A stretch of 64,000 nucleotides of DNA from Fidelibacterota bacterium (GTDB lineage: Bacteria; Fidelibacterota; UBA2242; JAOZSR01): positions 8,981 through 72,980 of the forward strand of contig JAOZSR010000003.1 of NCBI GenBank assembly GCA_029939575.1, in the 5' to 3' direction. The notes below the pieces were generated by a model. That model was given only the letters and a program-made list of their open reading frames with translations, was not told the DNA's origin and did no database searches. The position numbers and the translations under genes were made by a program. Of the stretch, positions 50,793-52,973 are shown piece after piece (the stretch's first letter is position 1; each line of letters starts with the position of its first letter).

Positions 50793-52973
50793 TTAATTTC
50801 TCCCACAGCACTTTTTGTACTTTTTTCCACTTCCACAGGGACATGGATCATTTCGTCCTATTTCATCAGAAGAGGAACCGGTAGTCTGGATTGGAGTTTG
50901 TTGCTTGCCTTGTTCATTTTCAATAAATTGCTGTTGATTATTATTTGCCTGTTCGGCTCTGTGTTTTTCCGCTGTTTCTCTCTGTTCTTTTTTCCAGTCA
51001 CTCGCCATTTGTTTAAATATTTCATCGGAGTATTCAAAAAATATTTTGTAAGCTTCACAAAAATGGCTGACATTATTATCCTGGGGATCGCGAATTCTGT
51101 CTTTGGTACAGCCACCTCTGCACAATTCCAGCCATTTACATGTTAAACATTCTTTTGGCAGGTCAGATTTAAGTTTGGCGAATTTGTCCTGCTTTTCGGA
51201 ATTTAACATATCGAGTAGATTGTCCTGCATCAGATTCCCCAGCTTCCATTCCGGTTCAACAAAGAAATCGCAGGAATAAACATTTCCATTATGTTCGGCA
51301 ACCAAATAAACACCACATTCTTCTTTTAGAAAACATTCAGGTGCATCAAAGCCGGCATATTTATGGAACAAAGCTTCAAAAAAACGAATCGAGATAGTAG
51401 GATGACCCGATTTAAAATCTTTTTGCCAAAGGTCAAAAAGTTTGCATAAATACTGTCCGAATTTCTTTGATGATACCGAGTAAGGAGCTGCTGTCGTTGA
51501 ATTTTTTTTATCAGTTTCTACAATTGGAATAAATTGCATGTATTTTATACCAAGTGCTTTATGAAAGTTATATATTTCTTCACAGTGGTCAACAGAATAG
51601 TCATTAACGACAGACAATGTGTTGACGGCAACATCTTTTTCAAGTAAGAGTTTGGCATTTTCATAGACTTTTTTCCAGGAACCCTGTCCTGCAATATTTT
51701 TGCGATAATGATCATGTATATGTTCAGGGCCATCAATTGATAAGCCAACCAAAAACTTGTTTTCTTTCAGGAATTCTGCCCATTCTGCATTTAAAAGAAT
51801 ACCATTTGTTTGTAAAGAATTACTTATTATCTGGTTATTGCTATATTTTTTTTGGAACTCAATCGCTTTCTTAAAAAAGTCCAGCCCCATTAAAGTAGGC
51901 TCTCCGCCTTGCCATCCAAAGGAGAAGTGTTTGGTACCCTGGGTGAGTGCCTGTTTTATCATCTCTTCTAAAACCTCTTCACTCATTCTATGTTTTTTGG
52001 CTCCAAACAATTTATTTTTTTCAAGATAAAAGCAGTATTCGCAAGCCAGATTACAATCCGGACCTGAGGGTTTTACCAGTAAAAAACTTAAAGGACGGAT
52101 TTGTTTGGGTGGATCATATTTTACCTGTGCTGTTTCTTTTAATTCATCAACAAATTTTTCAATTTGTTCTTCTTCTTTTTCCTTCTTTAGTTTTTCCAAC
52201 AACTTATCTTTTACCTGCTCGAAAGTTAATTGCCTGGAAGGTCTTTTATCATATAGTTTGGCGATATGAAAGCCGAATTCTGTTTGAAATATTTCACTGA
52301 TCTCATTTTTTTTTAGGTTAAATACAACATCTTCAAATCTCTGAACCATTTGACCGCGGGTAAAATATCCCAGGTCAAGACCATCTCCGGGACAATGGGA
52401 CTGCATATTTCCAACCTCTTCAAAACTTTTGCCGGAATTTAATAATTTTTTTGCTTCTTCGATTTCTTTTCTGGCTTGTTCCGCTGTAGTATTTGCATCT
52501 ATATGTTTTACAATATGTTTGGCTCTGATTTGTTCAGGAATCAAAAATTTTGATTGGTTTTGTTTATAATAATCTAATAATTCCTTGTGGCTCACTTCCG
52601 GTGTTTTTTTTCTCAATTCATTGATTAATCTGTCAACTTTTAGTTGAGTTTCTATTTGTTTTTTCATTTCTTCTTCACTGCTATTATTTGAGTCTAACAT
52701 TTCGAAGAATTCTTTCTCGTCTTTATAACTATCTTTAATTTCTTTGAAGGTTTTTTTAAGTTTTTTAGGATCAACCGGGCGTGAATCCTTTTTAGCAACT
52801 TGTTGAATTAATACTTTCTCAGTAACATTTTCTTTTGCCCAATCAAGAAGCTGTGATTGTTGCTCTTGTGGAGTTTGGTCCTGGAACATTTTCTGATACT
52901 CATTACGCATCATTTCTATTTCCTGGTTTATTATTTTGTCATCAATTTTTTCTTTATTCACAAATAAGGGCAT
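50793..52973 (-). CDS. Fusion protein: SurA-like N-domain and parvulin PPIase, an anaerobic sulfatase-maturating-enzyme-type radical SAM/SPASM core, and a C-terminal SEC-C zinc-binding motif
   Basis: Parvulin (IRAKHIV...[38 protein letters not shown]...[12 protein letters not shown]). Radical SAM CxxxCxxC ([16 protein letters not shown]). anSME hallmark [36 protein letters not shown]. SPASM cysteines ([17 protein letters not shown]). Terminal [21 protein letters not shown]. Confidence 0.7.
   Translation of the reverse strand: [726 protein letters not shown]

Follow-up and report, generated by a model that had tools for sequence, protein, structure and literature searches.

The window analysed here, a 64-kb stretch of contig JAOZSR010000003.1 from a Fidelibacterota (Marinimicrobia) bacterium, carries on its minus strand a gene (50793..52973) that fuses a parvulin-containing chaperone module to an anaerobic sulfatase-maturating enzyme (anSME) and a SecA-type metal-binding tail. 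The Pgk encoded in the window is ~70% identical to Candidatus Marinimicrobia / Neomarinimicrobiota proteins. The gene was assigned from the open reading frame (ORF) list, its Shine-Dalgarno sequence and the recurrence of its architecture. It forms one ATG-started ORF of 726 codons plus stop, unbroken in frame in the ORF listing of the window, and an AGGAG Shine-Dalgarno sequence sits 7 nt 5' of the ATG. Inspection of the product reveals four parts, namely a PrsA/SurA-type arm with an inserted parvulin, a complete anSME, a disordered linker and a SEC-C tail. An earlier note on this DNA, made from the sequence alone, had described a three-part fusion; the peptides that it quoted ([60 protein letters not shown]) are all contained in the translation, and the fusion is real, with Pfam, NCBIfam and PDB matches to all segments. 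In a hidden Markov model (HMM) search the rotamase, radical S-adenosylmethionine (SAM)/SPASM/anSME and SEC-C segments all pass their cutoffs. An AlphaFold2 model built from 21 homologues has a mean predicted local distance difference test score (pLDDT) of 83.7 and is confident inside the domains. All window coordinates given below refer to this minus strand.

The catalytic core spans residues 298-657 (51003..52082) and consists of a radical-SAM barrel followed by a SPASM domain. The NCBIfam model TIGR03942, 'anaerobic sulfatase maturase', matches exactly this segment over model positions 2-361 of 363 with 437.7 bits against a cutoff of 349.45, and Pfam places Radical_SAM at residues 304-470 (73.6 bits) and SPASM at residues 557-613 (38.8 bits). 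Among PDB sequences, residues 294-665 align end to end with the Clostridium perfringens anSME (anSMEcpe) 4k36 at an E value of 5.7e-82, and Foldseek superposes the core on 4k39 with a TM(target) of 0.90 and 38% identity. The 4k36 alignment locates the CX3CX2C radical-SAM cluster motif and the tyrosine that follows it at 52032..52055, where C307, C311 and C314 correspond to anSMEcpe C15, C19 and C22, and Y316 to Y24; all are invariant in 21/21 fusions. That alignment and the Pfam SPASM match together place the eight auxiliary-cluster cysteines and D569 at 51057..51335. The ligands of auxiliary clusters I and II (C547, C553, C568 and C622; C609, C612, C618 and C639) match those of anSMEcpe and, like D569, the equivalent of anSMEcpe D277, are invariant in the same fusions. 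We take D569 and Y316 to have the roles of D277, the proposed catalytic base, and Y24 in anSMEcpe. Because the equivalog cutoff is passed and all 11 cluster cysteines, D569 and Y316 are present, the core is by every sequence measure a genuine anSME. The known chemistry of this class is the radical oxidation of its target to formylglycine (PMC7771511). Compared with anSMEcpe (4K36-4K39), AtsB and ChuR of B. thetaiotaomicron, the core is 38-39% identical over its full length and has the same motif, clusters, Asp277 and Tyr24 equivalents and fold. Those characterised enzymes are single modules of 370-400 residues, whereas the fusion adds 290 residues at the N-terminus and ~70 at the C-terminus.

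The N-terminal extension resembles the extracytoplasmic foldases PrsA and SurA. Residues 1-140 (52554..52973) form the N-terminal half of a PrsA/SurA-type chaperone arm, the 'NC' arm built from N- and C-terminal segments, as judged from Pfam, PDB, AlphaFold2 and Foldseek. Pfam assigns SurA_N_3 at threshold (27.6 bits, cutoff 27.2) and Trigger_C (25.8 bits) within residues 5-116, PDB sequence searching aligns residues 37-304 with PrsA 6vj4, and this half is helical in the AlphaFold2 model at a pLDDT of ~80-90. Foldseek matches for the N-terminal part are SurA, PEB4 and PrsA. A parvulin peptidyl-prolyl isomerase (PPIase) domain follows at residues ~141-250 (52224..52553), recognised from Pfam and from residue invariance; three parvulin models cover residues 127-256, among them Rotamase_3 at 68.3 bits (cutoff 22.5) and Rotamase at 62.9 (cutoff 21.7). 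The arm is closed by a long return helix at residues 251-290 (52104..52223), from which a short linker leads into the enzyme. AlphaFold2 draws this helix at residues 251-281, and the PrsA and SurA alignments in PDB sequence searches extend to residue ~285-304. Across 77 fused and stand-alone copies of the module, the parvulin tetrad H153, C194, T231 and H236 is invariant in 77/77 (T or S at 231), as is the proline pocket of L201, M209 and F213, regardless of partner type. The tetrad presumably equates to Pin1 H59, C113, T152 and H157, and the domain looks catalytically competent from these residues. In the arm, the motif W45-A-x-E-N-x-x-E52 is invariant among the 77 modules, and W45, N49, E52 and D276, the last of these in the return helix, are each found in 77/77.

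PrsA, SurA, PEB4 and PpiD likewise consist of a helical arm of N- and C-terminal segments with an inserted parvulin (PrsA 6vj4, 4wo7; SurA 1m5y; PEB4 3rfw). These proteins are extracytoplasmic general foldases, either lipoproteins, periplasmic or membrane-anchored, whereas the module described here lacks a signal peptide, is cytoplasmic and is genomically tied to enzymes that form formylglycine (FGly). No signal peptide, lipobox or membrane anchor was found in the fusion, which begins [12 protein letters not shown] and so lacks a hydrophobic leader, and all family members share the start MxLxVNGExI. The PrsA and SurA equivalog models of NCBIfam score the fusion far under their cutoffs.

At the other end of the protein, residues 658-706 (50856..51002) form a poorly conserved helix and a disordered linker, delineated from the AlphaFold2 model and from an alignment that yields no consensus. 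The model contains a long helix at residues 639-687, and pLDDT falls below 50 at residues 686-703, comparable to the flexible linker that precedes the SecA metal-binding domain (MBD). The tail itself is a SEC-C or SecA-type MBD ([21 protein letters not shown], CXCX8CC; 50796..50855) that Pfam (PF02810) recognises at residues 707-725 with 40.9 bits against a cutoff of 20.4 and that matches the MBDs of YchJ (9l6b) and SecA (1sx0, 1tm6, 1ozb) among PDB sequences. The CXCX8C[CH] ligand motif with its conserved Ser lies at the extreme C-terminus ([15 protein letters not shown]); the metal-ligand motif of the SecA-type domain was defined in 10.1101/613315. The tail of SecA and the MBDs of YecA (AscA) and YchJ have the same motif and conserved Ser at the end of a flexible linker. 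On these grounds three identifications in the earlier note hold: the ~370-residue centre is an anSME (TIGR03942 above cutoff, full-length 4k36 alignment), the N-terminus contains a complete parvulin (Pfam scores, invariant tetrad and pocket), and the C-terminus ends in a SEC-C motif (about twice the cutoff, SecA and YchJ matches).

A fusion of this kind could in principle be an artefact in which an assembly chimera or frameshift joins two separate genes, and split versions do exist, in which 77-330 bp lie between a chaperone gene and an anSME gene. This prospect, for which the earlier note had proposed a check, is negligible. The frame is uninterrupted, and Rotamase, Radical_SAM and SPASM co-occur in one protein in ~58 of the best 120 cluster representatives, at 44-58% identity, drawn from independent NCBI, JGI, ENA and Logan assemblies. 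One variant, P0035, is present in 246 blocks of the collection. Named carriers belong to four phylum-level lineages (Marinimicrobia/Fidelibacterota, Ignavibacteria, KSB1 and Zhuqueibacterota), and the sources already name these relatives 'anaerobic sulfatase maturase'. The suggestion that the architecture is unusual was thus half right: it departs from the single-module anSMEs, and it recurs across these lineages under an automatic anSME name.

Four architectures can be distinguished among the relatives. Architecture A, the window type, has arm, parvulin, anSME and SEC-C; architecture B lacks the tail. In architecture C, comprising ~20 clusters, the parvulin (window residues ~152-248) is cleanly excised while the helical arm and the anSME are retained. 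This loss is in-frame and domain-precise in P0054, P0055, P0057, P0059, P0063, P0073, P0079, P0089 and P0092, which occur with or without SEC-C. Architecture D is a large group of ~417-residue anSMEs with SEC-C, found by a genome scan in Aminicenantes, Planctomycetota, Spirochaetota, Omnitrophota, Lentisphaerota, KSB1, Sumerlaeota and Smithella. That scan, which used patterns from the radical-SAM core with full-length alignment, returned chiefly plain anSMEs and served for the analysis of SEC-C and signal peptides given below.

A sulfatase gains its activity only once one of its residues has become FGly, a conversion that must take place on the unfolded chain. As the earlier note had observed, no sulfatase is encoded in the 64-kb window, by motif scan and by an iterated sulfatase HMM run on all ORFs. 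Inspection of orthologous loci gives a different picture. The P0035 fusion lies just upstream of a gene for a GntR-type regulator and four sulfatases, all of Cys type (CTPAR, CSPTR, CAPSR, CSPTR), and sulfatases occur within 10 kb of the fusion at the distinct fused loci L093, L102, L110, L118 and L129. At L110, a locus from the same clade as the window, a sulfatase gene ends 10 bp ahead of the fusion gene. Neighbour clustering identifies sulfatases as the commonest neighbour family overall, and the recurrent neighbours of fusions include sulfatases, the GntR-type regulator, a transporter and similar genes. Because orthologous fusions adjoin clusters of Cys-type sulfatases, the substrate is, on this comparative evidence, a sulfatase and not a ribosomally synthesised and post-translationally modified peptide (RiPP). 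The earlier note had raised a RiPP-type maturase, in which the radical-SAM/SPASM core modifies a small precursor peptide, and the empty window, the frequency of SPASM enzymes among RiPP maturases and weak DynA and DarE matches lean that way. We regard it as very improbable, given that DynA reaches 216.5 bits against a cutoff of 450 and DarE 164 against 650, that other RiPP models score lower still relative to their cutoffs, that the anSME equivalog passes, that sulfatases adjoin the orthologues and that the partner module is also tied to the formylglycine-generating enzyme (FGE), as described below. Clustering of ORFs of at least 90 residues found no candidate precursor-peptide family recurrent near fusions.

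Several further features of these loci were observed. Some sulfatases at L016, L022 and L034 carry CxAxR in place of CxPxR (CGASR, CMATR, CAASR) and hence have no proline at that position, a substitution that bears on the need for a prolyl isomerase; the anSMEs of these loci have no parvulin module. At L001 1-3984, upstream of P0035, genes for a PAPS reductase, two arylsulfotransferases and an ATP sulfurylase embed the locus in a wider island of sulfur and sulfate-ester metabolism. Beside two anSME fusions lies a convergent neighbour with an FGE-sulfatase domain (L003 10453-11061, 202 aa; L087 2255-4021, 588 aa with Ig-like repeats); if these are true FGEs, they would give dual aerobic and anaerobic capability.

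The sulfatases linked to these enzymes bear twin-arginine translocation (Tat) signals. RRxF[LI]K N-termini are present on all sulfatases that adjoin fusions or stand-alone modules, a twin-arginine signal is present in 14/14 loci where a SEC-C-tailed anSME has a full-length sulfatase neighbour, and 7/10 sulfatases tested pass the curated Tat-signal model TIGR01409. Sulfatases with no RR signal, some of them Ser-type (Bacteroidales, Prolixibacteraceae: L034, L062, L074), pair with tail-less anSMEs. Two Marinimicrobia sulfatases (L001 11545-15178) join the Tat signal to the type IX sorting domain Por_Secre_tail; in the usual account, Sec is the route by which type IX cargo passes the inner membrane.

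These signals bear directly on what the tail does. Docking at the Sec pathway, as the earlier note suggested, would have the tail bind SecB or otherwise bring the enzyme to SecA/SecYEG, where unfolded, Sec-exported sulfatases would be modified immediately ahead of translocation. In its favour, the tail differs little from the SecB-binding MBD of SecA, YecA/AscA feeds Sec substrates with the same domain, and Sec exports the Ser-type sulfatases of Klebsiella and Bacteroides. Against this stand the twin-arginine signals of every sulfatase beside a SEC-C-tailed anSME or a fusion, the TIGR01409 result and the pairing of non-RR sulfatases with tail-less anSMEs, and we consider Sec docking unlikely. 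The SecA-type MBD binds ribosomes as well as SecB, YecA/AscA uses it for ribosome binding, and many methionine aminopeptidases carry it (literature). Docking of the enzyme on the ribosome rather than at Sec is therefore the more plausible and more economical reading by analogy, since the linked clients carry Tat signals and the MBD both binds ribosomes and occurs on methionine aminopeptidases. Unlike its counterparts in SecA, YecA and YchJ, the SEC-C motif of the fusion sits on a protein-modifying enzyme whose linked clients have Tat rather than Sec signals.

The N-terminal module also exists outside the fusion. A metagenome scan seeded with the N-terminal 290 residues alone recovered fusions together with many stand-alone proteins, and an exhaustive search gave 368 representatives of the module at E<=1e-30. 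The stand-alone family measures ~285 residues (275-310), has no signal peptide, is 35-49% identical to the window module and comes mostly from Planctomycetota, where the sources name it merely 'peptidylprolyl isomerase'. After removal of duplicates, 51 loci were informative, and fused or adjacent status was judged by ORF continuity. The module is fused to an anSME in 16 loci, adjacent to a separate anSME in 6 and adjacent to an FGE in 16, so that 38/51 link it to one of the two maturases. Separate anSMEs, which score 422-495 bits with TIGR03942, lie on the same strand 77-330 bp downstream or are divergent. The FGE partner is a protein of ~325 residues with a full FGE-sulfatase domain (295 bits), E values of 5.5e-121 against Thermomonospora curvata FGE and 2.5e-114 against human FGE, and a conserved catalytic Cys pair; it is, from these comparisons, a genuine FGE. 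Chaperone and FGE genes are translationally coupled, overlapping by 4 nt in 15/18 pairs. At L159 the gene order is Tat-sulfatase, chaperone, FGE. Precomputed gene calls are independent confirmation of these pairings: an anSME with SEC-C comes after P0128, with a sulfatase ~5 kb beyond it, and an FGE comes after P0164 and likewise after P0232. Neighbour joining places the FGE-linked modules in a single clade, and the fused and split anSME forms are intermixed.

Every FGE coupled to the stand-alone chaperone also has a conserved N-terminal P-C-C-[VIA]-P-[ST]-[KRIM] motif ~30 residues before its FGE domain (L136 2464-3456, L159 8975-9967 and 16 further loci), and the best PDB alignments begin downstream of it, at query residue 30 or later. 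The motif resembles the sulfatase C-x-P-x-R target; it might act as a pseudo-substrate, handle copper or offer the chaperone a place to dock.

The dual partnership points to the client of the module. The two maturases have neither fold nor chemistry in common, and their substrate is all that links anSME with FGE; the unfolded sulfatase is therefore the most likely target of the module. It could instead serve the maturase itself, folding it or loading its cofactors as NifM does for its client; NifM is among the best NCBIfam matches of the module (88-102 bits), and an oxygen-sensitive anSME with three clusters is plausibly in need of help. Like the module, NifM is a PrsA-like parvulin of the cytoplasm that serves a single client system, the maturation of the nitrogenase Fe-protein. 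It differs in that the fusion scores 88 bits and stand-alone modules 84-102 against a TIGR02933 cutoff of 168.2, and in that the module has no nif context and is partnered with anSME and FGE. Since FGE, to which the module is also coupled, has an unrelated fold, copper/O2 chemistry and no Fe-S clusters, and since most anSMEs and FGEs work with no such partner, a self-directed chaperone is distinctly unlikely. The earlier note's idea that the attached isomerase serves the sulfatase substrate thus gains strong support as regards the substrate, by virtue of the link to both maturases; as regards isomerisation it is weakened by the deletion of the parvulin in ~20 clusters.

This deletion is the chief argument for a narrower alternative, in which the module is an anti-folding chaperone and its parvulin a structural or binding platform that does not isomerise the motif proline. 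Lineages that lost exactly the parvulin kept the arm and the anSME, and an anSME touches its peptide mainly through the backbone (PMC7771511). The residues of the domain weigh on the other side, as the tetrad and the pocket are conserved throughout the 77 modules, whatever their partner. In SurA-P1 and PpiD, by contrast, the parvulins are degenerate. It is largely the NC domain that gives SurA and PrsA their chaperone function, which again suits a holdase. Weighing both sides, we find a pure holdase doubtful.

Taken together, the reading that we favour with moderate confidence is that the gene product is a self-contained cytoplasmic enzyme with which this Marinimicrobia bacterium activates sulfatases, an anSME equipped with its own substrate chaperone, docked on the ribosome and serving Tat-exported sulfatases. 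The anSME core would use SAM and three [4Fe-4S] clusters to convert the Cys of C-x-P-x-R in an unfolded sulfatase into FGly. The N-terminal 290 residues would bind the sulfatase chain, and not the enzyme, and hold it unfolded, while the parvulin probably isomerises the prolyl bond of the motif; together these actions would give the target Cys access to the anSME site before the sulfatase folds. The SecA-type tail on its flexible tether would, as SecA and YecA suggest, dock the enzyme at the ribosome and allow co-translational modification. The modified sulfatase would then fold and leave via Tat, in Marinimicrobia relatives with type IX secretion to follow. Such an arrangement would meet a race between folding and modification, because Tat clients must fold in the cytoplasm before export; the target Cys of a sulfatase ends up buried in the folded structure.

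A functional analogy is provided by trigger factor, in which a PPIase and a helical chaperone arm likewise occur together with an element that anchors the protein to the ribosome; ribosome binding by the fusion is suggested by analogy, and its arm has the Trigger_C match given above. Trigger factor differs in having an FKBP rather than a parvulin domain, another ribosome-binding element and no attached modifying enzyme. The Tat proofreading chaperones TorD, DmsD and NapD are cytoplasmic helpers that delay export or folding until a cofactor or modification is in place, and they have folds unrelated to the N-terminal module and bind the signal peptide. More tentatively, it is possible that the module represents an unrecognised family of dedicated FGly-maturation chaperones, cytoplasmic parvulin foldases that would hand unfolded sulfatase to either anSME or FGE, of which the fusion would be the fully integrated, ribosome-tethered, trigger-factor-like form acting co-translationally on Tat sulfatases ahead of their folding.

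Several observations weigh against the favoured reading. The genome was seen as a 64-kb window, and that window has no sulfatase. The predicted TM-score (pTM) of the fusion model, 0.56, leaves the geometry between domains unfixed, and the invariance of W45-N49 is partly a matter of ascertainment, one retrieval pattern having held that motif. Isomerisation is not essential everywhere, because ~20 clusters dropped the parvulin yet kept the arm; from this pattern isomerase activity is dispensable in some lineages. The SEC-C tail is absent from 6/16 complete fusions, and extension-free anSMEs also adjoin Tat-type sulfatases (L012, L022, L035, L069, L079). That is to say, the accessory modules appear helpful but not obligatory. 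Finally, 13/51 loci have no adjoining maturase, for example P0170 in a housekeeping context, and the clients of the module may be broader than sulfatases.

The genes that flank the fusion were reported in the earlier note as a cupin and a GroES-like protein, and Pfam supports both. The Cupin_3 (EutQ-like) protein of 91 residues (50486..50761; Cupin_3, 98.1 bits) has its own GAGGAG and ATG. Its true start is Met31 at 50761, 31 nt after the fusion stop, and the apparent 59-nt overlap is an artefact of the ORF listing. The cupin is probably co-transcribed with the fusion, and its membership in the system is doubtful. The divergent GroES-like protein of 123 residues (53065-53436; Cpn10, 48.8 bits) is encoded immediately upstream of the fusion and has no adjacent GroEL gene, scores far below all GroES equivalog cutoffs, has an insertion of ~17 residues and falls in a 90% cluster with a single member. 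By tblastn over ~170 loci, a cupin follows a fusion in one other locus only (L108), and the GroES-like gene turns up in none; both were rejected as system components, as neither is a conserved partner.

Further upstream, the genes at 53524-62887 encode a PorV/PorQ-family protein (206 bits), a 1142-residue protein with no Pfam match, a TonB-dependent receptor and a CE2 carbohydrate esterase that ends in Por_Secre_tail (type IX sorting), which looks like a neighbourhood for glycan utilisation and type IX secretion. Just downstream of the cupin, a low-GC island (47554-50204; 0.24-0.31 versus ~0.33-0.40 nearby) contains a TdeIII-type type II restriction endonuclease (197.6 bits) and an N6/N4 DNA methyltransferase and is probably a horizontally acquired restriction-modification cassette. 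A promoter and terminator scan gave nothing above shuffled expectation.

The enzyme class is already known and the gene is auto-annotated as an anSME; greater interest, and better prospects for testing, lie with the accessory-chaperone family. No papers linking anSME, FGE or formylglycine with parvulin/PPIase, SEC-C or Tat were found among open-access papers and preprints, and the findings suggest an undescribed helper dedicated to sulfatase activation. To our knowledge, the coordination of FGly formation with folding and export in bacteria is poorly understood, especially for Tat substrates, and incomplete conversion limits both recombinant sulfatase production and 'aldehyde-tag' bioconjugation. 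A chaperone/isomerase wedded to both FGly-forming enzymes would, if true, be the missing coordinating factor, and it would clearly exemplify how two non-homologous enzymes with a common substrate have taken up a single accessory module. The case would also add to the evidence that SecA-type MBDs mark factors acting on nascent chains generally, beyond the components of Sec. For the ecology of these organisms, the finding bears on the degradation of sulfated polysaccharides by the abundant marine Marinimicrobia and by other sulfatase-rich anaerobes.

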